40,159 nt of DNA. Source: an uncultured Bacilli bacterium (lineage in GTDB: Bacteria > Bacillota_I > Bacilli_A > RF39 > UBA660). The position numbers were made by a program, and so were the translations under genes. This document shows, one piece after another, positions 16,797 to 38,814 of this stretch. Under the pieces are notes generated by a model, which was not told the DNA's origin, did not search any database, and saw only the letters and a program-made list of their open reading frames with translations. The stretch is from positions 1-40,159 of the forward strand of contig CANQFO010000001.1 in NCBI GenBank assembly GCA_947599755.1, read 5' to 3'. The number at the start of each line of letters is the position of its first letter. The first letter of the stretch is position 1.

Positions 16797-16801
16797 AAAA
16801 A

Positions 16802-23696: not shown

Positions 23697-23743
23697 TATA
23701 ATCAACACTGCTTTCTGAAAAGAAATTAGAAATTTCTACCATC

Positions 23744-23772
23744 TTGCAAAAGTAAAAAAAATGTGATATACT
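23744..23772 (+). promoter_or_regulatory. Candidate sigma-A promoter for greA (TTGCAA-17 nt-TATACT with extended -10 TG)
   Basis: TTGCAA at 23744-23749, 17-nt spacer ending in TGa, TATACT at 23767-23772, about 65 nt upstream of the greA ATG. Confidence 0.5.
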
Positions 23773-23838
23773 ATCGCAAGTTGAGTCTAGAAGGACACAA
23801 AAAAAGAAAACAGAAAAAGATAAAATGAGGTGAATAAA

Positions 23839-24309
23839 ATGGGAAATAAAAATACAGTATATTTAACCCAAGAAGGATTAGATGAATTAAAAAAGGAGTT
23901 AGACAATTTAATCAACGTAAGAAGGCCTGAAAATATTCAAGCAATCAAAGAAGCAAGAGCCCTAGGAGACTTATCAGAAAATGCAGAATATGATGCAGCA
24001 AGAAATGAACAAGCACAAATAGAAGGCAGAATTAAACAATTAGAAAAAATGTTAGAAAATGTCTCTATTATTTCCGAAGTATCAAAAGACAAAGTAGGAA
24101 TTGGAAATACTGTATCCATAAAATATGTAGAAGATGATGAAGAAGATGAATATAAAATTGTAGGTAGCCAAGAAGCAGATCCTTTCGAAAGTAAAATATC
24201 AAATGAAAGTCCAATTGCCAAAGCCCTATTTGAACATAAAGTAGGAGATATTGTTACAGTAGAAAGTCCTAATGGATCCTACCAAGTAGAAATTATAGAA
24301 ATTAAATAA
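23839..24309 (+). CDS. greA: Transcription elongation factor GreA
   Basis: Hallmark N-terminus (LTQEGLDELKKELDNL...RPE...IKEARALGDLSENAEYDAARNEQ) and C-terminal FKBP-like domain (SPIAKALFEHKVGD). ATG 23839 follows a GAGGTGA SD; the ORF-track GTG 23830 is less likely. Confidence 0.95.
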   Translation: MGNKNTVYLTQEGLDELKKELDNLINVRRPENIQAIKEARALGDLSENAEYDAARNEQAQIEGRIKQLEKMLENVSIISEVSKDKVGIGNTVSIKYVEDDEEDEYKIVGSQEADPFESKISNESPIAKALFEHKVGDIVTVESPNGSYQVEIIEIK

Positions 24310-24330
24310 AAGATATATGTCTAAATTATA

Positions 24331-24360
24331 GGTACTGATTTTTTAAATCAGTACCTTTAC
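24331..24360 (+). terminator. Rho-independent terminator of greA
   Basis: GGTACTGATT / AATCAGTACC perfect 10-bp stem with a short T-rich loop, followed by TTT. Confidence 0.7.
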
Positions 24361-24813
24361 TTTAACAGTAAAAATGAGCAAACCTATATAGAATAAGGAC
24401 TAGCTCATTTTTCATTTGTTGTGTATCAAAGTTTATTTTCTAAAATTTTGTAAATAAATATCATGTTCAATTTTAATACGATTATAGTTCCTTAAAGAAC
24501 CAATAATATAAGAGTTAGAATATTTTTTATCTAAATATTATCTAAAAACATTTAAATAAAAAATTTTGGGAATAATAAAGAAAACATAAAAAATGAAGAA
24601 AATAAAAGAATTTATGCAAATGATCGAGTTAGAGACACTACTGATTTAAAAAATGTAATAATGTTAAATGAAAGACTAAATTTTACTTCCTTATCTTTAA
24701 ACGCAATTTACTTTTTCATTTAACATATTTTTTTTAAAAAAATAAGATTTCCCTTTTCCTTTAATCAAAAATAGAGTATACTAAAAAAGAATAAGATACA
24801 AGGAGAATTGCCT

Positions 24814-26394
24814 ATGATTATTAGAAAACCTTATGCTTTTTTAATCAAACATTTTAAAAAAATACATATTGTTTTATTACTATTATGTGCCTATATTTAT
24901 TATAAAAATATGCAAACAAGTTCTTTCCTAAAAGAATTTTTAAATTTAGGAACATATGATGCTTATTATGAACCAATTAGTAAATACATTCCCTTTTTTG
25001 CTTTAATTCTTCTATTATTAATGATTGGAATAAATATTATCCTAGTAATTTTACTAAAACATAAACAAAAACCATGGAAATTATATTTATTCCCAATAGC
25101 AGTATACTCAATAATGTTCATTACAGATATTATCATTAGAAGTTTCTTCCAAACCTTTACAGGAACATACAAAGTAGCAAGCGTAAGAGCAATGAGAGAC
25201 TTTGTTTATATACTAACAGTAGGACAATTTCCTGTATTTATGATTTTATTAATTAGAATATTAGGAGTAGATTTAAATAAATTTAATTTTAAAGCAGATG
25301 AAGAATATTTAGAATTAGAAAGCAAAGACCAAGAAGAATTAGAAATTAATATTGATTTTGATAAAGAAAGTATGAAAAGAACTTGGAAAAGACTTCTAAG
25401 AAATTCAAATTATGTCTATCAAGAACATAAAAAATTAATTAATACGTTAATCATAATTATCTTAATCATTATCCTAAAAAATACTTATACTTATATTTTT
25501 GTAACCCATAAAGCATATAAACAAGGAGAAAGCTTTAATGCAAATGGTTATACAATTACAATCCATGATGCTTATTATACAGATAAAAACTATACAGGAA
25601 AAATCATTTCTCAAAAAAGTAGTTTTATTATTTTGGACTTAAGTATCAAAAATAACTTAACAAAAAGAACCATTGATTTAAATAAATATCATATTATGAA
25701 TGGAACAAGTAACTATACAACAACATTTCAAACTTATCAAACAGAATTTCAAGATTTTGGAAAAACAGCCAAAAACGAAGAATTAAAAAAAGATCAAACC
25801 CTAAACCTCATTATAATATTTAAAGTAGATAAAAGTTTAAAGAAAAATCGTTTTGTTTTATATTATCAAGAATTACAAAATAGAAGTTCCTATTTAAGAA
25901 AAATAAAATTAAAAGTAAAAGATGTATCAAAAATTGAAAAAGAAAAGGCTAAAAAACTTGGAGAAGATTTAACTTTTACAGTAGAGAAGAAAGAAGAAAC
26001 AATTAGTTTTGATCAGGTATCCATTCTTGATCAAGTTGAATATAGCTATCGGATATGTAACACTGCAGAATGCAATACTTCACAAAAAACACAAAGTGCA
26101 ACTCCAGGTACAAAAATATTAAAAATTGCTTTTGCATCGATAGAATATGAAGGTAAAGATATGATTGACTTTTCAATGAAATATGGTAAAATTAAATACA
26201 TAGATAGTAACAATAAAGAGAAGATAATTCCAATTGAAAATCCAATTCCTAGAACATATTATGGAAAATATTTATATATAAAAGTTCCCCAAGAGATCGA
26301 GCAAGCAAAAGATATTGAGATTATCTATACAGTTAGAAATCATCAATACATATACAGTTTAAATGAGGAAGAAGAAGGAGAAGAGTATGAATAA
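24814..26394 (+). CDS. Polytopic membrane protein with extracellular beta-sandwich (DUF4352-like) domains; first gene of the Tad-like cluster
   Basis: ATG 24814 lies 7 nt after an AGGAGA SD. Several N-terminal TM helices, an acidic linker and another TM precede a pattern typical of DUF4352-like Ig folds (FIILDLSIKNN...LNLIIIFKVDK). The family call is from memory only. Confidence 0.55.
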   Translation: MIIRKPYAFLIKHFKKIHIVLLLLCAYIYYKNMQTSSFLKEFLNLGTYDAYYEPISKYIPFFALILLLLMIGINIILVILLKHKQKPWKLYLFPIAVYSIMFITDIIIRSFFQTFTGTYKVASVRAMRDFVYILTVGQFPVFMILLIRILGVDLNKFNFKADEEYLELESKDQEELEINIDFDKESMKRTWKRLLRNSNYVYQEHKKLINTLIIIILIIILKNTYTYIFVTHKAYKQGESFNANGYTITIHDAYYTDKNYTGKIISQKSSFIILDLSIKNNLTKRTIDLNKYHIMNGTSNYTTTFQTYQTEFQDFGKTAKNEELKKDQTLNLIIIFKVDKSLKKNRFVLYYQELQNRSSYLRKIKLKVKDVSKIEKEKAKKLGEDLTFTVEKKEETISFDQVSILDQVEYSYRICNTAECNTSQKTQSATPGTKILKIAFASIEYEGKDMIDFSMKYGKIKYIDSNNKEKIIPIENPIPRTYYGKYLYIKVPQEIEQAKDIEIIYTVRNHQYIYSLNEEEEGEEYE

Positions 26395-28204
26395 AAAGGT
26401 AAAAAAATATTTAAAAATATTAATAACAATAATAATTGTTGGCTTATTTATCTGGTTTATTATCTTATCACCATGGCTTAAATTTAAAAACTATGAAAAA
26501 CAGATGAAAGAAGCAGGAAAAAGATATTTTGAAATTAATCACTCTGAATTACCGACAGGAAATAGAGTAAAAACAATAACTCTACAAGATTTATATTATA
26601 AATCATATATCAAAGAAGACTTTTATATTCCTTATACAAAAAATGCTTGTTCAATAAAAGATAGTTGGGTAAAAGTAAAAAAAGAAGCAAATGGAGAGTA
26701 TGGATATTATGTATATTTAAAATGTGGAGTCATTTCTTCAAAAATTGATCATGAAGGACCAACAATTACCTTAAATGGAAAAAAAGAAATTACGCTCAAT
26801 AAAGGAGAAAATTATCAAGATGAAGGAATAAAAAGTGTGCGAGATCAAACAGATGGAGAAATGAAAATATCAGATGTAACAATAAAATCTAATGTAAATA
26901 CAAGTGAAGTAGGAATATACAAAGTAACATACACAGCTTTAGATAGTTTAAACAACAAAACACAAATAACAAGAACAATAAAAGTAGTACAACCATTAAA
27001 AAATGCCGTCAAAGAACAAACTCAACAAGCAGATTATTATGTTGGATCAAATCCTAATAATTATATATATTTCTCAGGAATGTTATTTAGAATTGTTGGA
27101 TTAGATGGAGACGATGTCAAAATTATTGCTGATGAAGATATAGCAAATGTAAATTATGAAGGAATAGAAAAATGGTTAGATGATTATTATTATAATCATT
27201 TAACTGAAAAAGCAAAAAAATTAATTGTAAAAAATAAATATTGTAATATGGATTTAACGGATACAACACTAGATACAACAGAATGCACAACTTACACAAA
27301 AGAAAGAAATTTATACATCATTTCAGCAGAAGATATCAATAAAGCTAGTGCAAACGATGGGAATTATTTAAAACCAACAACAATGTCTTGGATTGCTAAT
27401 AAAAAAGATAAAGATAATGCTTATTTAACAAGAGATCGCTTTTATGATGATGCCTATGGAAAAAACTTTATTACAGAAAATATAGAAAATAATTATGGAG
27501 TAAGACCAGTAATTACGATAAAAGGGGATACATTAATTAAAACTGGAGATGGCACAGAAGATAATCCATATACCTTAGGAGAATTTACATATGGAAAGGC
27601 AAACGATTTAATCAATACAAGATATTCTGGTGAATATATTAATTATTCTGGTATGTTATGGAGAATTATTGAAACAGAAAGCGATGGGACAACAAAAATA
27701 ATCTCTAATGAAACACTTAGTGATGATTATGATAAAATTACTGTATTATCAGATGACAATTATGACGATAATACAAAACAATATAATCCAAAAGAAAAAG
27801 GAAATGTTGGATATTATATTAATAATAATGCTGGAGAATATGTAGAAACGAAATATTTTGTCAATCATACCATTGAAGTTCCTATTTATTCCTCAAAGAT
27901 TAAATATAAGGAAGAAACAACAACAAAAAAATACAAAGTAAAATTATCTGCTCCTAATATGTATGAAATGTTTTCTGCATACACTACTCATACTACACAT
28001 ATGGGATTAAAATCCCATTGGTTAATAAACTCTGGAAAAAAAGATAATAGAATAGGAGCAATGACCGATATAGGAGTAATTGTTAATGAACCAATAGGAG
28101 AGTATGATAAGTATGGAATCAGAGTAGTTGCCTATTTAAATAAAAATATAAGCATTAGTAATGGAAAAGGAACGGAAGAAAAACCATATATCATTGCAAA
28201 ATAA
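26387..28204 (+). CDS. Membrane-anchored pilin-head-like protein with Ig-like domain and two tandem GVRPV-type repeat domains
   Basis: ATG 26387 (SD AAGGAGAAG) overlaps the upstream stop by 8 nt. After the N-terminal TM comes a head region colinear with the 642-aa prepilin. An Ig-like segment follows (HEGPTITLNG...YKVTYTALDSLNN). There are two repeats (YFSGMLFRIVG...GVRPVITIKG...EDNPYTL and NYSGMLWRIIE...GIRVVAYLNK...EEKPYII). Confidence 0.6.
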   Translation: MNKKVKKYLKILITIIIVGLFIWFIILSPWLKFKNYEKQMKEAGKRYFEINHSELPTGNRVKTITLQDLYYKSYIKEDFYIPYTKNACSIKDSWVKVKKEANGEYGYYVYLKCGVISSKIDHEGPTITLNGKKEITLNKGENYQDEGIKSVRDQTDGEMKISDVTIKSNVNTSEVGIYKVTYTALDSLNNKTQITRTIKVVQPLKNAVKEQTQQADYYVGSNPNNYIYFSGMLFRIVGLDGDDVKIIADEDIANVNYEGIEKWLDDYYYNHLTEKAKKLIVKNKYCNMDLTDTTLDTTECTTYTKERNLYIISAEDINKASANDGNYLKPTTMSWIANKKDKDNAYLTRDRFYDDAYGKNFITENIENNYGVRPVITIKGDTLIKTGDGTEDNPYTLGEFTYGKANDLINTRYSGEYINYSGMLWRIIETESDGTTKIISNETLSDDYDKITVLSDDNYDDNTKQYNPKEKGNVGYYINNNAGEYVETKYFVNHTIEVPIYSSKIKYKEETTTKKYKVKLSAPNMYEMFSAYTTHTTHMGLKSHWLINSGKKDNRIGAMTDIGVIVNEPIGEYDKYGIRVVAYLNKNISISNGKGTEEKPYIIAK

Positions 28205-28219
28205 GTGTAGGTGGTAAGG

Positions 28220-29047
28220 ATGAAAAAGCGAAGGCGAAATCAAAAAAGAAATATAGATCAGAGAAAAAAAAGATTAATAATCACTTTTTTTCCTCTGATC
28301 CTTTGCTGTATTATCATCCCATTATTTTGGATCAATAAAATAAATTTTAAAACAAAAGAAATTTATCAAGTAGAAAGTAGAATAGAAAAAATAAAAGAAT
28401 TAAAAAAGAAAGATACCGAAGATTATAAAACAATTGGTTGGATAAAAGTTCAAGGAACGAATATTGATATACCTGTAATTGCCTATTTAAATGGAGACTT
28501 ATCTACTGATTTAGAAAATTATGCTTGGAATTTAAATTCAAACGAGAAATTTTATAATAAAATTAATATTAGAGGTCATAATATCTTAAATTTATCTTCT
28601 CAACCAGAAGTAGGATTAAAATATTTTTTAAGGTTTGATGATTTGATGTCTTTTGTTTATTATGATTTTGCAAAAAAAAATAAATATATTCAATATACTG
28701 TAGATGGTAAAGATTATATATATAAAATTTTTTCTGTAGGATTTGAATCAAGTTACTATGTTGATTCATATCATGATGGAAAACATTCGAAGAAAGAATT
28801 AAAAGAATTGATTAAAAGATATAAAGAAATAAGCCTATATCAATATGATATTGATGTAGAAGAAAAAGATAAATTCATTTCTTTGATTACTTGTACAAGA
28901 TTTAATGGATTTAAACAAGATTTTATCGTCAATGCAAGATTAGTAAGAGAAAATGAAAAATTAACTGACTATAGCATAAAAACAACCAAAGAATATAAAG
29001 AGGTAAAAAAAGTTTTGGAAGGTGAGGAAAAAAATGAAAGAGCATAG
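28220..29047 (+). CDS. Divergent sortase (class B-like) embedded in the Tad-like cluster
   Basis: Basic N-terminus plus TM, GWIKVQGTNIDIPVI, catalytic His (NIRGHNILN), Cys motif (ISLITCTRF) and Arg (FIVNARLV). ATG 28220 follows an AGGTGG SD. Confidence 0.7.
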   Translation: MKKRRRNQKRNIDQRKKRLIITFFPLILCCIIIPLFWINKINFKTKEIYQVESRIEKIKELKKKDTEDYKTIGWIKVQGTNIDIPVIAYLNGDLSTDLENYAWNLNSNEKFYNKINIRGHNILNLSSQPEVGLKYFLRFDDLMSFVYYDFAKKNKYIQYTVDGKDYIYKIFSVGFESSYYVDSYHDGKHSKKELKELIKRYKEISLYQYDIDVEEKDKFISLITCTRFNGFKQDFIVNARLVRENEKLTDYSIKTTKEYKEVKKVLEGEEKNERA

Positions 29048-31856
29048 TAAAAAAATAAAAAATGGATGGATTATTTTTATCTTACTATTAGTTTTAATTA
29101 TACCAAATGAAGTAAAAGCAAAAATTGATTGTAATGATCCTGCAGAGTTAATTTCAAAATATAATATCGATATTAATAAAAAGAATAAAAAAAGCACCAA
29201 AAAATATACAATATCGGCATTTTTAGATTCTAGTAGTATTGCTAATCGTTGTAAAAATAAAAAATGCGAATTAGAAATTTCCTTAGAAAATGAAGATGGA
29301 ACTTCAAAATATATTGATACACTAGTATTAGAAAAAGGGGATGAAAAAGATAGAAAAGATTCAGGGGCATTTGAAGTTCAATGGAGGGATGAGGACGGAG
29401 AAAAATACTTTGTTGTGAATATTGTGTTAAAAACAGACAAAGATTGTCCTGGTTTAAAGGTAATTTATAGAGTAAATAAAGCAGGTGATGATACTGTTTC
29501 TATACCATATGGAAATGTTGATTATAGTGATTTAGATGCTAACGATATTAATGAGATGAGTGATGTAAATTGTGATGCTAATGAATTTAATAGAAAATTC
29601 TGTGATGCAAGATTGTTAGCCTTACAACCTATTAATCATGATAAAAGTGGAGATCTTCAATCTGGTAAGGATAAAATGAAAGATACTTCAGTCAATAAAT
29701 TAACGTGTAATTATAATGTTGCATCAAATGAAATCAAAGAGTGGAATACGAATGAAAATGGTGATGATGGATATTACTTGAATAAGCAATATTATTATGC
29801 TAAGTCAACGGTAACTACACAATTAGATGAGCGATATGAATACCATTATGATTCAAAGAATCCAACATACGGTGATCCCTTAACTTGTACTAGAACATGT
29901 GAAGAGGCAGTAACGGTAGAGTATGGGCCTCCAGTAGCAGTAAGAGCAGGTTTGTGTTTTCAATATAAAGTAAAGGTAACTAGTCGAGTAGTTTGTAAGG
30001 TAACAGATAAACCAAAAAAACCAGATAATAATGCTTATAATCTTTGTACGCCAGTTCCACTTTGTACCAATGCTACTCATGATTATGTGAGTAATCAGGC
30101 AGGACCAAATGAGGATTTTGAACAATGTATTCAAAAATGTGATGGTGGAAAATATAGTCAAAAATGTAGTTTGAAGTGTTATCAAGAAGTATATGGAAAG
30201 AAAAATAATCAAAAGACTAAATTAGCCTTGCTAGAAGATGCTAGTGTAAGTCGATTAGCAACAAGTAGCACTTGGAATAGAGAGAAATGTATAGAAGCGA
30301 GTTCCGAAAAAAGAGACCAACTGGGCGGAAACAGTTATGATACAAATTTAGATAATAAAAATGACGGGTTATATTCTTATGGATGTTATTATAGAAATTA
30401 TGATAATGACGGGAATGTTACAAGTATTTCTTATCAGCGGAGTTCTACTATTAAGGAGTGGAACCTTGAAAAAGGTGGAGCAACTTGGTATTGGTATTAT
30501 AACCATAAAAATTATTTAAGCCCTACTCGATATGAACCAGATACTGAAGGAATATATCGACGTGTTATAGGCAGTGGGCACTGTACAGATATATGTTGGT
30601 GGTCAGGATGTGATAATGATCAGCAATATTTAAATAGTGCAGACATAGATTATGATAAAAAAACAAATAAAGAAATATATGCCCATGCTAAATCATCATG
30701 TAGTGCTAAAGCTACATGTAATACAACAACAACAGAATATACGATTGCAGTAAAATATGATACTGAAGATAAAGATGGAAAAGTAACAACAGAAAAAGTA
30801 TATTTCCCATATACCAAAAATCAAAATAGCAAATTTACATTAGGATCAGGAAAAAATTCCGGTGTAGTAAATAATAAAGCAATATTACAATATGATGGAT
30901 GTTATAGAACAAATGAAGCAAATAAGTGGTATATGACAGAATGGACAATTCCAATGACTTGGCAAGATAAGGATTTAGATGCAAATTATGATGGAAATGG
31001 AAATGGTTTAACTCCAAAAGAATATCAATTCTGTATGAAGAGAAATTTAAGAAGTGTAAATACAAAATGGTGGGATTGCTACCAAACATACGCAGCATCC
31101 AATAAAACAGCAGAAGATAGACAAAAACTAACATCTTGCTATAATGCATCTGGTGCTAAAGATTATAAAGATTTTAATAATGGAGATTCAAATGGTTATA
31201 ACATAGAAGCAACAACAAAAGATTTTGGTTACTTTGAGTGGAATTTCAACATTCAATGTTTCTATGCAGCATCAACAAGTTCAGTTAGTAATGATGATTC
31301 ATCTTGCAATTGCATAAACGGAACAGAATCTTGTTGTCCACCAAAAATAGATATAGATAATTGTCCTGGAGAAGATTGTCCACATCCAGATTCATATACG
31401 ATAAGAAGCGTAGAATTAACAGATCTATTCCCAAGTACACAAAATAGAAAAATAGAATATAGAACAACAGAAACAGGAAGACAAGTAGGATTTAACTGGA
31501 CAAGTGATGCAACAATTAATACAAGTAAAAACCCATTTTATGGAAGTTCATATGCAAAAAAACCAAATGATTTAATTACAACAATTCAATCACTTGGAGA
31601 TAGCATTTACACACAAGATGACAAATATTTAGAGTATGAATTCACCTTAACACCTGAAAAATTACAACAGATAAGAAAAGAAACAAGAGATACTTTACAT
31701 GGAGAGTATAGTAATTTTGATTATTGGAAAACTAAAACAACAGTATACAAGAATTTCAATTCATCTTCTAAAGCACAATTTTATACTAGTCCATTAATTA
31801 CTAGCTTAGGTGGTAGAAAAGTAACACCTGGTTGCAATACAAAGGATTGCAAATAG
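29034..31856 (+). CDS. Large secreted cysteine-rich protein (about 940 aa, 37 Cys), function unknown
   Basis: ATG 29034 follows a GGAAGGTGAGG SD and overlaps the sortase gene by 14 nt. Signal peptide ...WIIFILLLVLIIPNEVKA|K. Cys appear in paired patterns (CIQKCDGGKYSQKCSLKC, CNCINGTESCCPP...NCPGEDCP, C-terminal GCNTKDCK). No C-terminal TM or sorting signal. Confidence 0.7.
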   Translation: MKEHSKKIKNGWIIFILLLVLIIPNEVKAKIDCNDPAELISKYNIDINKKNKKSTKKYTISAFLDSSSIANRCKNKKCELEISLENEDGTSKYIDTLVLEKGDEKDRKDSGAFEVQWRDEDGEKYFVVNIVLKTDKDCPGLKVIYRVNKAGDDTVSIPYGNVDYSDLDANDINEMSDVNCDANEFNRKFCDARLLALQPINHDKSGDLQSGKDKMKDTSVNKLTCNYNVASNEIKEWNTNENGDDGYYLNKQYYYAKSTVTTQLDERYEYHYDSKNPTYGDPLTCTRTCEEAVTVEYGPPVAVRAGLCFQYKVKVTSRVVCKVTDKPKKPDNNAYNLCTPVPLCTNATHDYVSNQAGPNEDFEQCIQKCDGGKYSQKCSLKCYQEVYGKKNNQKTKLALLEDASVSRLATSSTWNREKCIEASSEKRDQLGGNSYDTNLDNKNDGLYSYGCYYRNYDNDGNVTSISYQRSSTIKEWNLEKGGATWYWYYNHKNYLSPTRYEPDTEGIYRRVIGSGHCTDICWWSGCDNDQQYLNSADIDYDKKTNKEIYAHAKSSCSAKATCNTTTTEYTIAVKYDTEDKDGKVTTEKVYFPYTKNQNSKFTLGSGKNSGVVNNKAILQYDGCYRTNEANKWYMTEWTIPMTWQDKDLDANYDGNGNGLTPKEYQFCMKRNLRSVNTKWWDCYQTYAASNKTAEDRQKLTSCYNASGAKDYKDFNNGDSNGYNIEATTKDFGYFEWNFNIQCFYAASTSSVSNDDSSCNCINGTESCCPPKIDIDNCPGEDCPHPDSYTIRSVELTDLFPSTQNRKIEYRTTETGRQVGFNWTSDATINTSKNPFYGSSYAKKPNDLITTIQSLGDSIYTQDDKYLEYEFTLTPEKLQQIRKETRDTLHGEYSNFDYWKTKTTVYKNFNSSSKAQFYTSPLITSLGGRKVTPGCNTKDCK

Positions 31857-31871
31857 AAGGAGGAAATAAAA

Positions 31872-32303
31872 ATGAATAAAGGAATGTTAACAGTAGGAAT
31901 TATTATACTAGCAGTGATTGCATTAGCTCTAATTAACTTTATTACTGGATTTTCAAATGGTAGTGAATTAGATTACTACCTAGTAAAAGAAACAACAGAA
32001 GCGGCTATGGAAGATGCACTAGATATGGAATTTTACAGTGAAAATTATCTTTATCGAATGGATAAAGAAAAATTTGTAGAAAGTTTCCTTCGTCGCTTTG
32101 CAGATAGCGTTGATAGAACGCGTACATATAAAGTAGCTTTTTATGCAATAAACGAAGTTCCTCCCAAAGTAAGTGTTAAAGTAGATTCACAAACTTCATT
32201 AAGTTTTTCTGGAGAAACAGCAAATATTAGCACAAATTATGATGCAATTCTTGAAGCAGATTATAAAAATGATATCTATGCCAAAGCAGAATTCAACAAA
32301 TAA
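31872..32303 (+). CDS. Small N-terminally anchored protein, possible pseudopilin/TadE-F-like component
   Basis: SD GAAGGAGG. The N-terminus MNKG-MLTVGIIILAVIALALINF (short polar leader, Gly, hydrophobic helix) precedes a ~110-aa soluble domain. It lies immediately upstream of cpaB. Confidence 0.4.
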   Translation: MNKGMLTVGIIILAVIALALINFITGFSNGSELDYYLVKETTEAAMEDALDMEFYSENYLYRMDKEKFVESFLRRFADSVDRTRTYKVAFYAINEVPPKVSVKVDSQTSLSFSGETANISTNYDAILEADYKNDIYAKAEFNK

Positions 32304-32336
32304 AAGAAAAAATGAAAAAAGAAAGGAAGGGATAAA

Positions 32337-33143
32337 ATGGGGAATGCAACCAATGGAATAAAAAAATTTTTATCCAATAAAAACACAGTGACAGTACTCG
32401 GTGTAATAGTAGCAATTGCAATATTATATATTGGTTATAATGTACGTGTACGATCAGCAATCAATCCAGTTAATGTACCATATGCCAGAGTACAAATTAA
32501 TGCAGGAGAACAAATCACATCAGATATGGTAGGAGTAAAACAAATTCCACCCTCAATGTTAGAAGGAGATGTATTAGTAAATCAAGGAGATATTATTGAT
32601 AAATATAGTAATATTGATACAGCAATACCAGAAGGAAGTTTATTTTACAAAAGAGCAGTGGTAGAAAGAGATCAACTACCAGATAGTATTATATTAGATT
32701 ATCCTAAAGGTTACGTTTTATATAATATGGCCGTAGATACAGAAAGTACATATGGTAATTCAGTATTTCCTGGAAACTATATTGATATTTATCTAAAAGC
32801 AGTCAATAAAATAGAAGAAGGAACTGCCTTAAATGCAGATGCAAATAAAATTATGTTAGGAAAATTAGTATCTAACGTAAAAGTAATTGCCGTAAAAGAT
32901 GCCTCAGGACAAGCAGTATTTTCAAATGTAGATGAACAAAGAACACCGGCAATGGTTGTTTTTGCAGTACCAGAAGAATATTATATTTTATTAAAAAAAG
33001 CAGAATTTTTAAGAACATATGATTCAACATTAATTCCAGTTCCAACAAATGAAAGCTTAAAAGATGAGCCAGGAGAATTAGCAATTACCAGTGAACAATT
33101 AAAAGACTGGATTAATGCAGTTACTGTTTGGACAGAAACATAA
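32337..33143 (+). CDS. cpaB: Flp pilus assembly protein CpaB/RcpC-like (SAF domain)
   Basis: N-terminal TM, SAF-type segment (VPYARVQINAGEQITSDMVGVKQIPPSML) and an RcpC-like C-terminal region (VKVIAVKD...). Positioned directly before the Tad ATPase. Confidence 0.7.
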   Translation: MGNATNGIKKFLSNKNTVTVLGVIVAIAILYIGYNVRVRSAINPVNVPYARVQINAGEQITSDMVGVKQIPPSMLEGDVLVNQGDIIDKYSNIDTAIPEGSLFYKRAVVERDQLPDSIILDYPKGYVLYNMAVDTESTYGNSVFPGNYIDIYLKAVNKIEEGTALNADANKIMLGKLVSNVKVIAVKDASGQAVFSNVDEQRTPAMVVFAVPEEYYILLKKAEFLRTYDSTLIPVPTNESLKDEPGELAITSEQLKDWINAVTVWTET

Positions 33144-33173
33144 ACGATAAAAGATAAAAGGGTGTGAAAAAAA

Positions 33174-34658
33174 GTGACAGAAAGTATCTTTGATAAACTC
33201 GATTTTGGACCATTTCGTTCCTTATTAGATAACGATGATATAACCGATATCTCTTATGACAATAACGGACAAATTTGGATTCGTTCACTAACACAGGGAT
33301 CAATGAGAGTAGAAGTAGAAGGAGCAACACCAGAATTTGTAGAAAAATTAGCATTTCAATGCTCCAATGTAATGGGAACAACATTTAATAATGCCAAACC
33401 ATTTCTAGATGCAGAATCAGCAGAATTACGATTAAACTTTGTTCATCCTTCGATTGCAACCAATGGAATTGCTCTAGTAATTCGTAAAACTCCAGCTAAA
33501 ATCAGACTAGAAAAAGAAAAATTATTAAAAGAAGATTATTTCACACAAGATATTCATGATTTATTAATTAAATGTGTGGAAGGACATTGTAATGTTATTG
33601 TTTGTGGAGAAACTGGTTCAGGAAAAACAGAATTTGTAAAATACCTAGCAAGCCATACCAAAACTAATGAAAAAATTATTACCATAGAAGATACTTTGGA
33701 ACTACACTTAGATAAAATTTTTCCTCAAAGAGATATAGTCGCAATGAAAACAAATAACGTTGCAAGTTATACAGATGTTTTAGTAACATGTATGCGTCAA
33801 AATCCAAAATGGATTTTATTATCCGAAGTACGTAGTGCAGAAGCAGTATCAGCAGTAAGAAATTCAATCTCATCAGGACACAATATTTTATCAACCATTC
33901 ATGCTGATAAAGCATCCGCAATACCATATCGTTTATATAGTTTGATGGAAACTGATCTAGATGTAAATCAATTTTTAACAACCATTTATCGATATATCCA
34001 ATTAGGAGTGCATATAAAAGCATATTATAGTAAAAAATATGGAAAATTTCATCGTGAAATAGATGAAGTAACAGAATTTTATGTAGATGACAATAATAAA
34101 CCACAATCTAGAATCATTTATCAAAAAATCTTTGGAAAAGAACCCATCATGAGAAAACCAAGTCCCCATTTATTAGAATATTTAGAAAATCAAAATATAG
34201 ATGTTTCAAATATTATTTCAGAATTACCAGATGAAATGCCTCTTACTGAAATAGATCCAGAATTAAAACAGTCAGAACAAGAAGGAAAAATTGAAACATC
34301 CCAAATGCAAAATGCAAACTTACCAGAAGAAATAAAAATTCAACCCCCACAACCAGTAGAAATAAAAAATCAAATGCTAGAAGAGAGTAAAAATGATCAA
34401 ACACAAATTCAGACAAATAATATTCAACAAGAAAATATTGCTACCACAACTACTCCAAATGTAGATATTCAATCAATACCAAAAGAACAACAAATTATAC
34501 AACAACCAATTTTAACCCCACAGGTAGAATTACCACCTATACAAACGAATCCGATTGCTCAACAACCAGTCATACAGCAACCAATATTGCAACCTAATCA
34601 ACAAGAAATGCAAACAACAGCACCAATACAAAAACTATCAGAACAAAATCAAGGATAG
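33174..34658 (+). CDS. tadA: Tad/CpaF-type secretion ATPase (T2SS-E/VirB11 superfamily) with Q/P/I-rich C-terminal extension
   Basis: Walker A (VCGETGSGKTE), Asp box (IITIEDTLEL), Walker B (WILLSEVRSAEA) and His box (SGHNILSTIHA). GTG start. The last ~140 aa are low complexity (IQQPILTPQVELPPIQTNPIAQQPVIQQPILQPNQQ). Confidence 0.9.
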   Translation: MTESIFDKLDFGPFRSLLDNDDITDISYDNNGQIWIRSLTQGSMRVEVEGATPEFVEKLAFQCSNVMGTTFNNAKPFLDAESAELRLNFVHPSIATNGIALVIRKTPAKIRLEKEKLLKEDYFTQDIHDLLIKCVEGHCNVIVCGETGSGKTEFVKYLASHTKTNEKIITIEDTLELHLDKIFPQRDIVAMKTNNVASYTDVLVTCMRQNPKWILLSEVRSAEAVSAVRNSISSGHNILSTIHADKASAIPYRLYSLMETDLDVNQFLTTIYRYIQLGVHIKAYYSKKYGKFHREIDEVTEFYVDDNNKPQSRIIYQKIFGKEPIMRKPSPHLLEYLENQNIDVSNIISELPDEMPLTEIDPELKQSEQEGKIETSQMQNANLPEEIKIQPPQPVEIKNQMLEESKNDQTQIQTNNIQQENIATTTTPNVDIQSIPKEQQIIQQPILTPQVELPPIQTNPIAQQPVIQQPILQPNQQEMQTTAPIQKLSEQNQG

Positions 34659-34672
34659 AAAGGAGTGAATAT

Positions 34673-35575
34673 ATGTATTTTGAAGAATTAATTATCATTG
34701 CCGTTATTGCAATAGGAATTGTATTATATAGAAACTATGAAGGACAAAATATAGGAAAATATATTACAACCCAAGTTCAACAAGTATATAATAAATTTGC
34801 TCCATATTCATTTAAAGTAACTAGAGAAAAAACAAAAGAATTAGGTCAAGAATATACTCCAAGACAATATGCAATTCAAGTAACAGTAATCGCAGGATTT
34901 ACAGCAATAATTACTTACTTATATTTTTATAATATAATTATTAGTATTGTCTATGTTGTAATATCAATTATGTTTGTTCCCTATCTTACTTATTTACGTT
35001 GTAAAAAAGTATATAGTGAATTTATATTTGAACAAATTCAAACTTATACTTCTAATGTAATTATGGAATTTGCCACTACTCAATCTTTTGTTAAATCATT
35101 AGAAGGAGTAATCAATTCAGGAATATTAGAAGATCCAGTAAAAAAAGATGTCCAATATATGATTGATTTATCTTATCAAAATGGTACCATTGATGAAGCA
35201 CTAAGTTATATGAGTAATCTATATCCATATTATATTGTAAAAAATATGCACCAATTATTTTTACAAATTACCAAAGAAGGAGCAAGAAATTCAGCAGAAT
35301 CATTAGATAATATGCAATTGGATATTGATATGTTAGTAGAAGGTGTATACCGAGATAGAATAGAAAGAGCAACATTCCATAAACAATTTTTACAATTTGG
35401 AATTATGCTATATCTATTGGTAATGTTAGTACAATATTTAGTAGGAACAGAGACTTATTTAGTTTTACTAGATCAATGGTATGTTCAATTTTTACTACAT
35501 GCAGTATTAATTATCAATACCTATTTCCTTCTAAAAGGAGAAAAATATTATAATGAGAATGTAGGTGCAGAATAA
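34673..35575 (+). CDS. tadB: TadB-like inner-membrane platform protein (T2SS-F family)
   Basis: Topology is TM, 2 TM, a helical cytoplasmic domain (...SFVKSLEGV...IDEALSYMSN...), then C-terminal TMs. The position after tadA and the TAATG overlap with the next gene support the call. Confidence 0.6.
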   Translation: MYFEELIIIAVIAIGIVLYRNYEGQNIGKYITTQVQQVYNKFAPYSFKVTREKTKELGQEYTPRQYAIQVTVIAGFTAIITYLYFYNIIISIVYVVISIMFVPYLTYLRCKKVYSEFIFEQIQTYTSNVIMEFATTQSFVKSLEGVINSGILEDPVKKDVQYMIDLSYQNGTIDEALSYMSNLYPYYIVKNMHQLFLQITKEGARNSAESLDNMQLDIDMLVEGVYRDRIERATFHKQFLQFGIMLYLLVMLVQYLVGTETYLVLLDQWYVQFLLHAVLIINTYFLLKGEKYYNENVGAE

Positions 35576-36366
35576 TGGAAGTATTAATCTCAGGAGCAAT
35601 CATTTTATTTATACTAATCTATAATAATACTATTGATAAAAATAAATTTTTTGCTGATAATGAAAAATATCTAGAAGTTTTTCGTGAAGAAGATTATAAC
35701 TTTTTAGTCTATGCAAAATACGGAGACGATGTTAATGTAGATCAATTATATATGAAAAGAATTACCAATACTTTTATCACCTTCGTTGTCGTCTTAGCAT
35801 TTACGGTAAGTGGAGGAAGTTCAAAATTTTTCTTAAACGTAATTTTATCTGCAGTAATCGCCGTAGTAATCTTTAAATCCAACTACATGCAATTAAAAAG
35901 TTATTATAAAGCTCATTTACATGATGTAGACGTAATGTTACCATATTATTTAAAAAGTTTAGAAATTTTAATCCAACATTATACAGTTCCTGTAGCCCTA
36001 GGAAAATCAATTGATGATGCTCCTGAAATATTCAAACCAGGACTAAGAAAATTAATTGATCGAATCAATTCAGGAGATTCAACAATAGATCCATACATGG
36101 AATTTGCTAATACCTATCCAGTAAGAGATTCCATGAGAATGATGAGACTTCTATATCGTTTAGGATTAGGTTCACAAGAAAAAAAGCAAGAAAGATTAAT
36201 GATGTTTTCAAAAACTGTTTCCAATTTACAAAATAAAGCCAGAGAAACTAAATATAAAGAAAGACTAAATCATATGGAAAGTCAAACCATGGTTATGTTA
36301 GTAGTAACTGGTATTGGTGTTATGTTAATTATTTTAATTGCTATGTTAATGATGTTTAATGTTTAA
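35575..36366 (+). CDS. tadC: TadC-like inner-membrane platform protein (T2SS-F family)
   Basis: Same TM/helical-domain/TM layout (LPYYLKSLEILIQHYTVPVALGKSIDDAP...) and translationally coupled to tadB. Confidence 0.6.
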   Translation: MEVLISGAIILFILIYNNTIDKNKFFADNEKYLEVFREEDYNFLVYAKYGDDVNVDQLYMKRITNTFITFVVVLAFTVSGGSSKFFLNVILSAVIAVVIFKSNYMQLKSYYKAHLHDVDVMLPYYLKSLEILIQHYTVPVALGKSIDDAPEIFKPGLRKLIDRINSGDSTIDPYMEFANTYPVRDSMRMMRLLYRLGLGSQEKKQERLMMFSKTVSNLQNKARETKYKERLNHMESQTMVMLVVTGIGVMLIILIAMLMMFNV

Positions 36367-36430
36367 ATCACAAAAATTTAAGTAAATAAACATATAGAGT
36401 GTACAATATAGAAAAAAAATATAAAAAATA

Positions 36431-36459
36431 TTGATAAAAAAAAATAAATTTGGTACAAT
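36431..36459 (+). promoter_or_regulatory. Internal sigma-A promoter in front of the pilin-like ORF (TTGATA-17 nt-TACAAT, extended -10 TGg)
   Basis: TTGATA at 36431-36436, 17-nt spacer ending in TGG, TACAAT at 36454-36459, then the AGGAAAGGA SD and ATG 36493. Confidence 0.5.
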
Positions 36460-36492
36460 AAAAATAAGATTAGGAAAGGATGTGAAAAAGCA

Positions 36493-36666
36493 ATGAAAGC
36501 AGCATCAGGAGAATTAAATTTGACAGTAATTACAATAATCGCAGTTACTGCTGTACTTACATTTTTTATGACATTTTTATGGCCACGTGTTAAAGATACG
36601 ATAAACAATGGTTGGGATAATATTGAAAATGTTCCAGATCAAGATCAAAGAGGCTCAGGGCGTTAG
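36493..36666 (+). CDS. 57-aa Flp/Tad-type pilin-like protein (absent from the supplied ORF track)
   Basis: Hand translation gives MKAASGELNLTVITIIAVTAVLTFFMTFLWPRVKDTINNGWDNIENVPDQDQRGSGR* with TAG at 36664-36666. It has a short polar leader ending in Gly, a ~22-aa hydrophobic helix and a short polar tail. It has its own promoter and SD and sits between tadC and the tadE-like gene. Confidence 0.55.
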   Translation: MKAASGELNLTVITIIAVTAVLTFFMTFLWPRVKDTINNGWDNIENVPDQDQRGSGR

Positions 36667-36684
36667 TTAAGAAGGTGGAGCTAA

Positions 36685-37167
36685 ATGAATGAGGCAACAG
36701 GAGGAGTAATCAGTTTAACAATGATTGCAGTATTTATTGCAATCATATCTGGTTATTTAGCATTTAATGTTAGTTACATGAAAGCATTTCGAACCAAAAA
36801 TAGGATTATATCTTATTTTGAAGAATATGAAGGAAACTGTCTAGATCAAAATACAGATTGTGCCAAAAAAATCAAGCAATATATGCATGATACTGGGTAT
36901 AATGTAGCAGGAGATGCCTTAAATCGGAGCCTAATAAATAGTTATAATTTACCACAAACACAAGAATATGGTTGTGTTGATGATGGATATTGTTGGATTA
37001 AGACACCTGTTTCAGGATCTAATCCAAATACCAAAGGAATGGGAAAAGCTACATTTAAAATTATAACAGCAATCAACATTGATATACCAATAATTAATAA
37101 AATATTGCCAAGATTAAAAATATTTCATGTATCAGGAGATACAAAACAAATTGTTTTACGATCTTAA
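36685..37167 (+). CDS. TadE/pseudopilin-like protein
   Basis: SD GAAGGTGGAG. The N-terminus MNEATGG-VISLTMIAVFIAIISGYLAF is TadE-like (polar leader, Gly, hydrophobic helix). The small Cys-containing globular domain has 4 Cys. Confidence 0.45.
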   Translation: MNEATGGVISLTMIAVFIAIISGYLAFNVSYMKAFRTKNRIISYFEEYEGNCLDQNTDCAKKIKQYMHDTGYNVAGDALNRSLINSYNLPQTQEYGCVDDGYCWIKTPVSGSNPNTKGMGKATFKIITAINIDIPIINKILPRLKIFHVSGDTKQIVLRS

Positions 37168-37184
37168 GATTAAGGTGATGAAAA

Positions 37185-38231
37185 GTGAATGTAATTGTTG
37201 CAAATGAAAAGCAAAATCTATTATCTAATTTAGATATTGATATTATTAAAAGTATTTCTGGTTCATATGATACAAATGAAATAATAGAAATGTTTAAAAA
37301 CTTTTTTTATAGTAGAATGATTTTAGATGTAACTGCATTAAAAGATTATAGTAATGTAGAAACTTATAAAAAATTAAAAAATGGATTAGATGTAGAAAAA
37401 ATTATTTTCTTTTTACCAGAAGGAAGTAAAATATGTACATCTAATTTTTTAGCACAATTAATTTCCATAGGAATATATAATTTTACCACTAATATTGAGG
37501 GAATTAAATATTTATTAAAAAAGCCAAATACATACAAAGATGTAGAACATATTGAAAAATTAGGAATGGCATCTTCAGAAAATACAGTAGGAAATTTTTC
37601 AACAAATCAACCTAATCAATCTAATCAACCTAACCAATCATCCAATCAATCAATAGGAAGAAAAAATCGAATAATAGGATTTAGAAACGTAACTGAACAT
37701 GCTGGTGCAACAACACTAATTTATATGTTAAAGAAAGAATTAGCAAAAGAATTAGGAGAAAAAGTAGTAGGAATAGAAGTAAATTCCAGAGATTTTCAAG
37801 TTTTTAATGATAAAAATTTAATTTCAACTACTCAAGCAGAATTAAAAAATACAATAGCAAATCAAAAAAATGCTCAAATTATTTTGGTTGATCTAAACAA
37901 TGATACAGATGATGCAGTATGCCAAGAAATCATTTATTTAATTGAACCAAGTATTATTAAATTAAATAAATTAATTCGAAAAAACAAAATGATATTTTCC
38001 AAAATAAAAGGAAAAAGAGTGATGTTAAATAAAAGTTTATTATCAAATAAAGATGTCAATGATTTTGAATATGAAGCAGGATTCAAAGTATTTTACAATA
38101 TGCCACCCTTAGATGATAGAAAACAAAATGCAATAATCAATGATTTCTTATCAAGAATTGGTTTATTAAATCAACCAATAGGCGAAAAAAAAGATAATTC
38201 TAATAAAATATTTGGATTGTTTAGGCGCTAA
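37185..38231 (+). CDS. tadZ: TadZ/CpaE-like protein (receiver-like N-domain plus ParA/MinD-like domain with degenerate P-loop)
   Basis: GTG start with AAGGTGA SD. An N-terminal ~130 aa flavodoxin-like segment and an N/Q/S/P linker precede IIGFRNVTEHAGATTLIYMLKKELAK. That segment occupies the place of the deviant Walker A (GGxGxTT) but lacks the signature Lys residues. Confidence 0.5.
   Translation: MNVIVANEKQNLLSNLDIDIIKSISGSYDTNEIIEMFKNFFYSRMILDVTALKDYSNVETYKKLKNGLDVEKIIFFLPEGSKICTSNFLAQLISIGIYNFTTNIEGIKYLLKKPNTYKDVEHIEKLGMASSENTVGNFSTNQPNQSNQPNQSSNQSIGRKNRIIGFRNVTEHAGATTLIYMLKKELAKELGEKVVGIEVNSRDFQVFNDKNLISTTQAELKNTIANQKNAQIILVDLNNDTDDAVCQEIIYLIEPSIIKLNKLIRKNKMIFSKIKGKRVMLNKSLLSNKDVNDFEYEAGFKVFYNMPPLDDRKQNAIINDFLSRIGLLNQPIGEKKDNSNKIFGLFRR
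37605..37652 (+). repeat. Imperfect 9-nt tandem repeat (AATCAACCT-like) encoding an NQPNQSNQPNQSSNQS linker inside the tadZ-like gene
   Basis: Direct reading gives aatcaacct aatcaatct aatcaacct aaccaatca tccaatcaatca. Confidence 0.6.
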
Positions 38232-38288
38232 TAATTGACAAAAAAAAAGATATAAGGTATGATAGAGATATCGAAGGAGAGGTTATTT

Positions 38289-38633
38289 ATGTCAAATTTA
38301 TTTCAAATTGGAGCAGATTTAGATAGTTGTGGAGGACTATTACCAATTGTAAGAGTATTAAAAAAAGGAGTAATGCCAGTTGTTCAAATTGTTATTCCAA
38401 TCCTTTTAATTGTTTTCGCAACAGTTGATTTAGGAAAAGCAGTTATTTCTAGTGAAGAAAAAGAAGTAAAAGCAGCCCAAGGAAGATTAATTAAAAGATT
38501 TATTTATGCAGCAGCAATTTTCTTTGTAGTATCTCTTGTAACAGTAGTAATGAATTTAGTATCAAAAGGTGGAGAAGGAGATACAGAAAGCTGGAAAAAC
38601 TGTTGGGCCTCTGCATATATAGTAGAAAAATAA
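38289..38633 (+). CDS. Free-standing two-TM small membrane protein (third copy of the module fused to the two hydrolases); VirB2/T4SS-pilin-like topology
   Basis: ATG 38289 follows an AAGGAGAGG SD, so the ORF-track 38259 extension is rejected. The sequence is colinear with the N-termini of the 14096 and 15183 proteins: LFQI..., Cys-Gly, amphipathic helix, TM1 VQIVIPILLIVF, SSEEKE loop, TM2 and a C-terminal CW. Confidence 0.6.
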   Translation: MSNLFQIGADLDSCGGLLPIVRVLKKGVMPVVQIVIPILLIVFATVDLGKAVISSEEKEVKAAQGRLIKRFIYAAAIFFVVSLVTVVMNLVSKGGEGDTESWKNCWASAYIVEK

Positions 38634-38643: not shown

Positions 38644-38675
38644 AATAGTAAAGGAACAATTGCTATTTTTTTTTT
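38644..38675 (+). terminator. Rho-independent terminator after the small two-TM gene
   Basis: AATAGTAA / TTGCTATT 8-bp stem (one G-U pair) with a 7-8 nt loop, followed by roughly 9-10 consecutive T residues. Confidence 0.5.
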
Positions 38676-38814
38676 ATTTTGCTATAATAAATATGATAGA
38701 ATAGAAAAAGTATCGAAAATAAAACAGAAAAAACTAGTAAAAAGAAAAATATATGATATAATATAGAACAAAAACGTGCAAACAATAGGTGATAAGGTTA
38801 AGAGGTGATATTTG

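Follow-up and report, generated by a model that had tools for sequence, protein, structure and literature searches.

In this study, we analysed a 40,159-nucleotide stretch of DNA (the window) from an uncultured Bacilli bacterium of the RF39 group (positions 1 to 40,159 of contig CANQFO010000001.1, assembly GCA_947599755.1), in which thirteen + strand genes, g1 to g13 (24814–38633), had been described beforehand as a divergent, self-contained pilus locus of the tight adherence (Tad)/Flp type. We consider it likely that these genes are the proximal half of a ~30-kb chromosomal supercluster of 23–25 genes, which joins Tad-like genes to a type IV secretion system (T4SS) in uncultured gut Bacilli of low guanine-plus-cytosine (GC) content and is used for contact-dependent transfer. 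Its gene content, collinearity and conservation, and the co-divergence of its components, were directly observed. Three modules can be proposed: a surface module (g1–g4), a module that would assemble a Tad-type type IV filament (g5–g12) and a monoderm T4SS. The latter would comprise VirB2-like pilins from g13 onwards, a VirB6/TrbL protein (38815 on), a VirB3-sized protein, TraC-like and VirB4 proteins, a SpoIID/C39-like hydrolase, a VirB8-like protein, VirD4 and a DUF6273 protein. The supercluster would be fixed in the chromosome and vertically inherited, without a relaxase in the cluster.

The type IV secretion half, its conservation and its plasmid counterpart

The array continues past 38633, since a same-strand open reading frame (ORF) at 38815 reaches the window end. 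The last of the thirteen genes is not a Tad gene: g13 (38259–38633, +) encodes a VirB2-like T4SS pilin of 124 aa with two transmembrane (TM) segments; it is the first gene of the T4SS half and the counterpart of p45 of the Bacillus subtilis conjugative plasmid pLS20. Its match to the T4SS_pilin model (PF18895) is weak (E 0.05), as are those of its orthologues, and iterated searches place it in the same family as two window proteins encoded at 14096–16031, which pass the Pfam cut-off. The ORF at 38815–40159 (+) is the 5′ part of a VirB6/TrbL-like polytopic channel protein that runs off the window end. It scores 24.5 bits against TrbL_4 (PF19597, cut-off 27), compared with 35.6 bits for its relative in locus L001.

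Contigs with close homologues of the g7 ATPase have g1 to g13 in the same order behind HD-greA, and there g13 is followed on the same strand by genes for at least one T4SS_pilin-like protein, a TrbL_4 protein (700–740 aa), a VirB3-sized protein of ~106 aa, a TraC-like protein, a VirB4-like ATPase (AAA_10, P-loop_TraG and DUF87 domains) and a SpoIID-domain protein. Further downstream are the remainder of this hydrolase (SpoIID and Peptidase_C39_2), a ~260-aa VirB8-like protein, VirD4, a DUF6273 protein and a rhodanese gene. In locus L007, VirD4 (17986–20412) matches T4SS-DNA_transf (1.3e-55), TraG-D_C and TrwB_AAD_bind, and all ORFs inside the cluster are accounted for, none being a relaxase or an integrase. 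The block first described as self-contained is the proximal part of a larger supercluster with a complete monoderm T4SS in relatives.

The two g13-related proteins of the window (14096–15169 and 15138–16031, both +) each fuse an N-terminal two-TM, VirB2-like T4SS_pilin domain (32.0 and 29.1 bits, respectively) to a hydrolase domain, Amidase_3 in the first and NlpC/P60 in the second. Encoded ~9 kb ahead of the cluster, these fusions may be enzymes that remodel the wall for the T4SS, or else T4SS-associated effectors.

A scan with the VirB6-like protein over one genome per GTDB species returned 66 loci, or 65 without the L001 duplicate. They come from metagenome-assembled genomes recorded as uncultured Tenericutes, Mollicutes, Mycoplasmatota, Bacilli or Candidatus Faecimonas, and include one closed 1.31-Mb chromosome; judging by these titles, the lineage is probably RF39-like. 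In every locus long enough, iterated profile searches over all ORFs recovered the order g4/g5-g6-g7-g8-g9-g10-g11 (one or two copies)-g12-g13-(pilin-like or DUF6273)-VirB6-106aa-TraC-like-VirB4-hydrolase-VirB8-like-VirD4. The same order is found even in a deep group, where the VirB6-like protein shows 25–32% identity. Both g7 and VirB4 are present in all of the loci that reach both anchors (51/51), and VirD4 in 49/65, the other loci ending before it. Of the thirteen-gene block initially proposed as a unit, the order g5–g13 is kept in the 65 species loci wherever the DNA reaches, with a g4-type giant in position; g1, g2 and g3 are missing from both distant-group loci with enough upstream DNA.

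Two chromosomal contexts were observed, HD-greA versus ABC transporter/diacylglycerol kinase in the deep group, and the position beside greA is fixed in several species. Across species, the percentage identities of g8, g9 and g12 rise and fall with those of VirB4 and VirB6/TrbL (Spearman 0.71–0.91), and VirB4 is 78–97% identical. This co-divergence, together with the VirB4 identities, suggests that the genes have long been inherited vertically and kept by purifying selection. We also considered an island recently acquired by horizontal transfer and rejected it, as the GC content equals that of the flanks, the flanks are housekeeping genes and neither integrase nor tRNA is present. Among the loci whose ORF tables were fully inspected, the array is interrupted only once, in the closed 1.31-Mb genome (L063), by a 467-aa ORF (6244–7647, −) between the TadZ-like and VirB2-like genes, which may be an insertion element.

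From g5 on, the supercluster shows homology and collinearity with the pLS20-family conjugation operon (genes 34–54; also Enterococcus faecium pJHP10_2). In the proximal half, profiles of g5, g7, g8 and g9 matched p36 (9e-4), p37 (3e-54), p38 (1.3e-4) and p39 (7.8e-5), respectively; in the T4SS half, TrbL matched p49 (2e-7), VirB4 p52 (1.6e-36), the 261-aa protein p53 VirB8 (4e-4) and VirD4 p48 (1e-64). Moreover, p45 scores 32.1 bits against T4SS_pilin (cut-off 26.6), and p36 matches DUF5411 at 1.4e-5, below the Pfam cut-off. The two systems share a large surface protein, a DUF5411-like protein (p36), a CpaF/VirB11-family ATPase (p37), two membrane proteins of ~250–270 aa (p38/p39), small single-TM proteins (p40, p41) and a T4SS_pilin (p45). 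They also have in common VirD4, VirB6, a small protein, VirB4, a VirB8-like protein and a wall hydrolase, and their ATPases fall in one clade.

The pLS20 family differs in being plasmid-borne, with a MobP2 relaxase, an oriT, quorum-sensing control and surface exclusion, and in the position of VirD4, which lies upstream of VirB6 in pLS20 and last in the window-type system. The latter is chromosomal, lacks a relaxase in the cluster and adds CpaB, a TadZ-like protein, a sortase, DUF6273 proteins and a Cys-rich giant; neither a CpaB-like nor a TadZ-like protein was detected in the pLS20 family by profile searches. On the plasmid side (NC_015148; L073 9446–9826, 11049–12586 and 14035–14265), genes formerly labelled 'unknown' can be re-annotated, p36 as DUF5411, the p38 family as TadB-like and p45 as VirB2-like.

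A complete T4SS with its VirD4 coupling protein, homologous to and collinear with self-transmissible plasmids, is also what would be expected of a pLS20-type integrative and conjugative element, or of an integrated plasmid of that type, which is still mobile, transfers itself and uses the Tad-like genes for ordinary mating-pair formation. We hold this to be quite unlikely, even though one distant locus has a weak match to the CD1107-like mobile-element protein family. From greA to the rhodanese gene and in the scanned flanks, which is as far as the search went, we found no relaxase, integrase or replication gene and no tRNA/att-like boundary. In addition, the fixed position beside greA, the GC content and the co-divergence reported above all speak against a mobile element.

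Another explanation, which we regard as unlikely, is a stand-alone Tad/Flp adhesion pilus that merely lies beside an unrelated T4SS, the synteny being due to the shared ancestry of close genomes. The adjacency, though, outlasts both the change of chromosomal context and the divergence of the VirB6-like protein to about 25–32% identity. Furthermore, g13, which stands at the junction, already encodes a T4SS pilin, and the same combination of genes in the same order forms one conjugation operon in Bacillus and Enterococcus conjugative plasmids. A pilus on its own would agree with the essentially complete list of Tad-like parts, with the weak hairpin and promoter-like site that follow g13, and with the Tad locus of Ruminococcus albus, which has no annotated T4SS genes within 10 kb. 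It would also agree with a 'secretion-related' operon of 8–9 genes predicted in Roseburia, Ruminococcus and Eubacterium, in which CpaF, PilC/GspF-like, DUF5411 and surface/invasion-type proteins occur together as in the window and no T4SS is mentioned (PMC9523054). The platform proteins of that operon are recognisable as PilC/GspF (PMC9523054). The window ATPase, however, belongs to a conjugation-associated clade (98% bootstrap) and not with canonical TadA/CpaF.

The Tad-like components

This ATPase, g7 (33174–34658, +), is a CpaF/VirB11-family secretion ATPase (T2SSE, PF00437, 97.5 bits). Its NCBIfam scores of 117 bits for VirB11, 105 for TadA and 94 for FlaI are all below the cut-offs, and FlaI (4.8e-20), CpaF (2.5e-18) and VirB11 are about equally near in the PDB. 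A tblastn search of 72,556 plasmids gave as best match the 'tadA / putative VirB11' of the B. subtilis pLS20 family (~35% identity), followed by proteins of Priestia, Lactococcus, Enterococcus and the B. cereus group, with canonical CpaF and VirB11/TrbB lower. A neighbour-joining tree (294 columns, 100 bootstraps) places the ATPases of RF39 type with those of pLS20, E. faecium pJHP10_2 and Lactococcus pJM4A (98%), a clade that also holds at 98% once pXO1 is added as sister; canonical CpaF/TadA and VirB11/TrbB are both outside. The preliminary description had taken the enzyme for a CpaF/TadA ATPase that should stand apart from VirB11 and conjugative ATPases. Its grouping with ATPases of Gram-positive conjugation (98%) comes close to contradicting this, and it joins neither VirB11 nor canonical CpaF.

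Lists of the 120 best homologous proteins were filled by close relatives (70–92% identity) without names or Pfam domains; the distant ones were reached through the locus scans. The g7 ATPase ends in a low-complexity, Q/I/P/E-rich tail of 149 aa (34209–34658). Total length in the family ranges from 384 to 866 aa across species (for example L103 7761–8915 and L096 10885–13485) as the tail varies, which lowers the apparent identity between relatives. Such a variable low-complexity tail is unusual for secretion ATPases. A ComG/competence pilus was also discarded, as ComGA scores under VirB11, TadA and FlaI and the neighbours are T4SS genes and not com genes.

Could g7 be a plain VirB11-type energiser of the T4SS, with T4SS-specific membrane partners and no filament, the likeness to Tad being ancestral and not functional? 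VirB11 is its top NCBIfam score, the Flp motif is missing from g10, and the window and the fetched loci encode no prepilin peptidase. In pLS20, Val-Calvo et al. 2021 called gene 37 'putative VirB11', left p38–p41 as unknown and reported no VirB2 or pilus components encoded (PMC8557374), and Gram-positive conjugation systems were described in 2024 as apparently lacking a pilus (PMC11730352). We nevertheless judge this explanation very unlikely. Indeed, VirB11/TrbB lies outside the g7 clade, and the conserved CpaB/RcpC protein, TadZ-type MinD/receiver protein, paired T2SS-F-like proteins and short proteins with a leader, a Gly and a helix are not used by VirB11 systems. Likewise, pXO1 carries annotated cpaB, AAA (TadZ-like) and CpaF/VirB11 genes together with three pilin-like genes of 67 aa.

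The Tad-like module of pXO1 (B. anthracis/B. cereus) is in several respects close to that of the window. It combines cpaB, the AAA (TadZ-like) gene, a CpaF/VirB11-family ATPase that is sister to the RF39 and pLS20 clade, and TadB-/TadC-like genes, one of which encodes a 310-aa protein with a weak T2SSF match. It differs by having the TadZ-like gene before the ATPase and a second platform gene that is frameshifted in the record used. This gene occupies an unannotated gap after the 310-aa TadB-like gene (L082, 5050–5962); it would encode a TadC-like protein with a ELPEYLIPMLQLL... motif and, given the frameshift/stop in the B. anthracis record, is probably a pseudogene.

The products of g8 (34673–35575, +) and g9 (35575–36366, +) had been called T2SS-F (type II secretion system F) platform proteins, and were expected to match the corresponding models. 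This did not prove to be the case: neither has a Pfam match, T2SSF included, or an NCBIfam match, and 23 diverse g8 relatives have none either. These relatives came from a search of 1.84 billion representatives that found 246 members of the g8 family. Searches of PDB sequences with the g8 and g9 family profiles gave no usable match.

We nonetheless infer from structure prediction and alignment comparison that both are extremely divergent TadB/TadC-type platform proteins. An AlphaFold2 model of g8 built on the diverse alignment has a mean predicted local distance difference test score (pLDDT) of 84.8. In Foldseek comparisons with the PDB, it superposes sensibly only with the cytoplasmic T2SS-F domains of EpsF (3c1q, 2vmb) and OutF (5nbg), at a probability of 0.77–0.84, a template-modelling score of 0.60–0.68 on the target and a root-mean-square deviation of 3–4 Å; the E-values are weak, as expected for a small helical bundle. 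Using hhalign with small alignments drawn from annotated Tad loci and plasmids, g8 aligned with the pLS20 p38 family (66%, E 6e-5), itself aligned with canonical TadB (95%, E 2e-8). Similarly, g9 aligned with canonical TadB and TadC together (73%, E 3e-5) and with the p39 family (58%, E 1e-4). Against single sequences the g9 alignments were weak, and the signal came with the small family alignments; its family hidden Markov model also matched an R. albus T2SSF protein (4.5e-5). Thus, g8 would be a very divergent TadB-like protein and the counterpart of p38, and g9 a very divergent TadC-like protein and the counterpart of p39.

Upstream of the ATPase, g5 (31872–32303, +) encodes a DUF5411 protein (PF17424, 1.3e-46) made of an N-terminal TM helix and a domain of ~110 aa. 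It is the counterpart of p36 and a candidate minor pilin or assembly factor. By sequence, g6 (32337–33143, +) encodes a CpaB/RcpC-like SAF-domain protein with one N-terminal TM segment. The matches are marginal and consistent: PF16976 at 29.5 bits (cut-off 28.8), PF08666 at 22.8 bits (cut-off 21), TIGR03177 at 32.6 bits, below its cut-off, and a match of the g6 family model to Ralstonia CpaB (1.7e-6).

Two genes for small proteins follow the platform pair. The first, g10 (36493–36666, +), encodes a 57-aa protein that we propose as a Flp-like candidate major pilin. Aligned across 14 loci, its N-terminus is conserved as MK(A/E)ATG-ELN(L/M)T followed by ~20 hydrophobic residues, and the relatives are 48–68 aa long. 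It has no Pfam match, and its G-ELN(L/M)T differs from the G-xxxxEY of canonical Flp pilins in having no E-Y at +5/+6, so it is Flp-like in size and layout only. The second, g11 (36685–37167, +; one or two copies in relatives), encodes a 160-aa pseudopilin-like protein with an M-R/N-D/E-A-x-G-G leader, a hydrophobic helix and a domain that holds 4 Cys in the window protein. The leader common to both, M-K/R-x-A-x-G and then a hydrophobic helix, looks like a class-III-type signal peptide.

Next, g12 (37185–38231, +) encodes a cytoplasmic protein for which an AlphaFold2 model (pLDDT 72.6) predicts a TadZ/CpaE-type architecture, with a receiver-like N domain and a MinD/ParA-like C domain. Foldseek retrieved BcsQ, MinD, ParA and Get3 at a probability of ~1.0 (E 3e-3 to 2e-2), plus receiver domains. 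The P-loop (Walker A) is degenerate (..EHAGATT..). At the sequence level, there is no Pfam, NCBIfam, PDB or TadZ match, and hhalign against the single TadZ sequences of pXO1 and Ralstonia was weak (E 0.012–0.037).

No A24 prepilin peptidase was found among the Pfam-scanned window ORFs or within the cluster in related loci. A 642-aa protein encoded at 16858–18786 (−) has a canonical type IV pilin N_methyl motif (PF07963, 1.3e-9), an indication that this genome does encode a prepilin peptidase. Its gene adjoins that of a 636-aa protein with a SpaA (prealbumin-like fold) domain (18831–20741, −), and by their domains the two proteins imply a second, different surface-fibre system.

Altogether, a divergent monoderm Tad-like core can be upheld, with the CpaB-like g6, the T2SSE ATPase g7, the Flp-like g10, the pseudopilin-like g11 and the predicted TadZ architecture of g12, the g8/g9 platform being recognised by hhalign and Foldseek only; the self-contained pilus locus cannot. 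The gene order, initially considered unusual, is so only in where the TadZ-like gene stands. In monoderm Tad loci, it is normal for a pilin gene to follow tadC, as in R. albus (tadZ-tadA-tadB-tadC-small ORF-A24 peptidase) and pXO1 (cpaB-tadZ-cpaF-tadB-...-three small pilin-like genes). Canonical Tad/Flp (type IVc) pili, including those of the monoderm R. albus (pRUMAL01), share with the window the parts found or predicted there, namely CpaB/RcpC, TadZ, TadA, TadB, TadC, a short pilin and pseudopilins. Bifidobacterium is another monoderm bearer of such pili. Canonical loci differ in passing the Pfam T2SSF and Flp models, in encoding an A24 prepilin peptidase and in not lying inside a T4SS.

A proposed role in contact-dependent transfer

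We can propose the following roles for the supercluster. The g7 ATPase and the g8/g9 platform would assemble by polymerisation a short Flp-like fibre that crosses the wall, CpaB (g6) serving as envelope scaffold and the TadZ-like g12 as localiser. This fibre, for which the surface module may provide a tip or some other assistance, would make or tighten contact with another cell. The VirD4/VirB4/VirB6 channel would then deliver a substrate, DNA or protein, into the contacted cell, so that the function would be contact-dependent transfer rather than simple adhesion. The retention of VirD4 favours the export of a recruited substrate (DNA or protein) over mere uptake or adhesion.

Several points weigh against this proposal. 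The evidence is all in silico, and since the conserved examples belong to a single lineage, plain vertical inheritance could account for part of the synteny. As detailed above, g8, g9 and g12 miss every curated sequence model, the direct hhalign matches being at 58–73% and the Foldseek E-values weak; g10 has no Flp motif, no A24 prepilin peptidase was found, and the DUF5411 Tad-like operons of Clostridia are described without a T4SS (PMC9523054). The relaxase search covered the cluster and its flanks only, and a relaxase elsewhere in the genome is possible. Finally, between g13 and the VirB6-like gene there are a weak hairpin and a promoter-like site, and separate transcription of the two halves is therefore possible.

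Comparable arrangements exist in other bacteria. The thin pilus of IncI R64/TP114 and PAPI-1 also have a type IV filament machine encoded with VirB4/VirD4 DNA transfer, and there the machine works for DNA transfer; the hosts are diderm, the filament is of type IVb and not Tad-like, and the elements are mobile with relaxases (PMC12857230, PMC9045228). In Patescibacteria, chromosomal, mostly relaxase-less T4SS of the MPF_FATA-like type have been described, for which an exapted, non-conjugative role was proposed (PMC12102498). As in the window, they are of monoderm type, with VirB2-like T4SS_pilin paralogues, and are chromosomally fixed in uncultured hosts with reduced genomes; they differ in belonging to another phylum, in having type IV pili encoded separately and in that no integrated Tad-like module is reported (PMC12102498). 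Our search of the literature brought up no relevant work on T4SS, Tad or pili in RF39.

The system is a new, chromosomal form of a type of machine that is known yet little understood. How pilus-less Gram-positive conjugation systems find and hold their partners is an open question; their descriptions contain no pilus components (PMC11730352, PMC8557374). The present locus, which is expanded and better preserved in that it has CpaB and a TadZ-like protein, marks the 'VirB11 plus unknown genes' segment of pLS20-type operons as a Tad-like filament-assembly module, an idea that is directly testable in B. subtilis. The occurrence of a relaxase-less composite with VirB4 78–97% identical over dozens of species suggests that it is central to the biology of these bacteria, like the T4SS of epibiotic Patescibacteria. 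A bolder version, which we put forward only tentatively and think rather doubtful, is that a T4SS derived from conjugation and fused, both physically and genetically, with a Tad-type filament machine was domesticated as a core, vertically inherited organelle across an entire lineage of gut Bacilli with reduced genomes. It would serve an obligate cell-cell interaction (delivery or acquisition of substrate or DNA), in parallel to the Patescibacteria T4SS, and pLS20-type systems, long regarded as having no pilus, would by homology build a Tad-like conjugative fibre from genes 36–41. In practice, the surface proteins and the pilin and adhesin candidates offer a handle for the study or cultivation of these small-genome gut bacteria.

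Surface module, boundaries and neighbouring genes

The four genes that precede the Tad-like core had been presented as part of the same locus; the deep group retains a counterpart of one of them only, g4. The first, g1 (24814–26394, +), encodes a 526-aa polytopic membrane protein with 4 predicted TM segments and a C-terminal ectodomain that is weakly DUF4352-like. The product of g2 (26387–28204, +) is an N-terminally anchored surface protein with Bact_surface_Ig-like (PF16403, 4.8e-19) and DUF6273 (PF19789, 3.5e-6) domains; the T4SS half carries a second DUF6273 protein in all relatives. A membrane-anchored sortase is encoded by g3 (28211–29047, +; PF04203, 31 bits, cut-off 26.6). It is weakly class-B-like (TIGR03064, 47 bits, below cut-off) and has an SLITC active-site motif. 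A sortase-assembled pilus was ruled out, as no LPXTG, NPxTG or SPxTG motif with a TM tail was found in g1–g13. A second sortase gene lies elsewhere in the window (2961–3836, −) and matches PF04203 more strongly (48 bits).

The last gene of the module, g4 (29034–31856, +), encodes a secreted protein of 940 aa that has a signal peptide and contains 37 Cys; Pfam and NCBIfam searches found no known domain in it. It is probably an adhesin; indeed, its position is that of the adhesin gene in pLS20-type operons, where the thioester adhesin gene 34 is upstream of p36 and p37. Distant relatives have Cys-rich giants (733–1450 aa, 25–54 Cys) directly upstream of the DUF5411 gene, so that g4 is conserved in the deep group by type and position, not by detectable sequence. 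Only this giant is deeply co-conserved among g1–g4, because g1, g2 and the g3 sortase are missing from the two distant-group loci that reach far enough upstream (L092 and L096), where a small protein at the sortase position has no sortase match. Besides the window, g1 was found in L001, L004 and L103, the last being a third metagenome locus without g2 or the g3 sortase.

As for the layout, the ORF table agrees with the thirteen co-directional, tightly packed genes that had been described: thirteen + strand ORFs occupy 24814–38633 with a coding fraction of 0.979. From g1 to g13, the intergenic distances are −8, 6, −14, 15, 33, 30, 14, −1, 126, 18, 17 and 27 nt. They were computed with the internal ATG starts 26387 (g2) and 29034 (g4), with which the 8-nt, 14-nt and TAATG overlaps noted earlier were also recovered. 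Shine-Dalgarno-like sequences precede most of the genes. A promoter-like site (TTGATA-17-TACAAT with TG; 36431–36459, +), identified by consensus match only, lies in the 126-nt gap ahead of g10. The GC content is ~26% throughout the window, with 27.8% in the g1–g13 block versus 26.3% upstream, and an Rfam search of the window returned nothing, tRNA included.

Upstream, the cluster is bounded in this genome by the intrinsic terminator of greA (23830–24309; GreA_GreB_N and GreA_GreB domains). A terminator scan placed it at 24330–24356 (+), with a 12-bp stem, a T tract and a fold of −17.4 kcal/mol. The AT-rich spacer of ~450 bp reported after it (24357–24813) measures 457 nt at 20.6% GC, compared with about 100–115 nt in L001 and L004. 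It has no Rfam match and no ORF of note, and may contain lineage-specific regulatory sequence. Downstream, the 'terminator at 38644' turned out to be an A/U-rich hairpin with a T run that fails the scan for G+C-rich terminators. This weak hairpin is followed by a consensus match to a promoter (TTGCTA-17-TATAAT with TG; 38660–38688, +), a possible candidate internal promoter.

Two further genes or gene pairs are found at the beginning of the window, a TOTE conflict system protein with an AEP-TOTE primase domain (43–612, +) and a type III restriction-modification pair (4953–8938, +) in which an N6_N4_Mtase gene precedes a ResIII/SWI2_SNF2 helicase. By their domains, they appear to be a small defence-gene neighbourhood. 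The genes upstream of the cluster are housekeeping genes, namely MltG/YceG, O-methyltransferase, U32 peptidases, HD protein and greA. The order in 11663–24309, mltG (YceG), O-methyltransferase, two U32 peptidases, HD protein and greA, is presumably that of yrrL-yrrM-yrrN-yrrO-...-greA in B. subtilis. Inserted in the middle of this run are the genes for the pilin-hydrolase fusions and the two for surface proteins on the minus strand.

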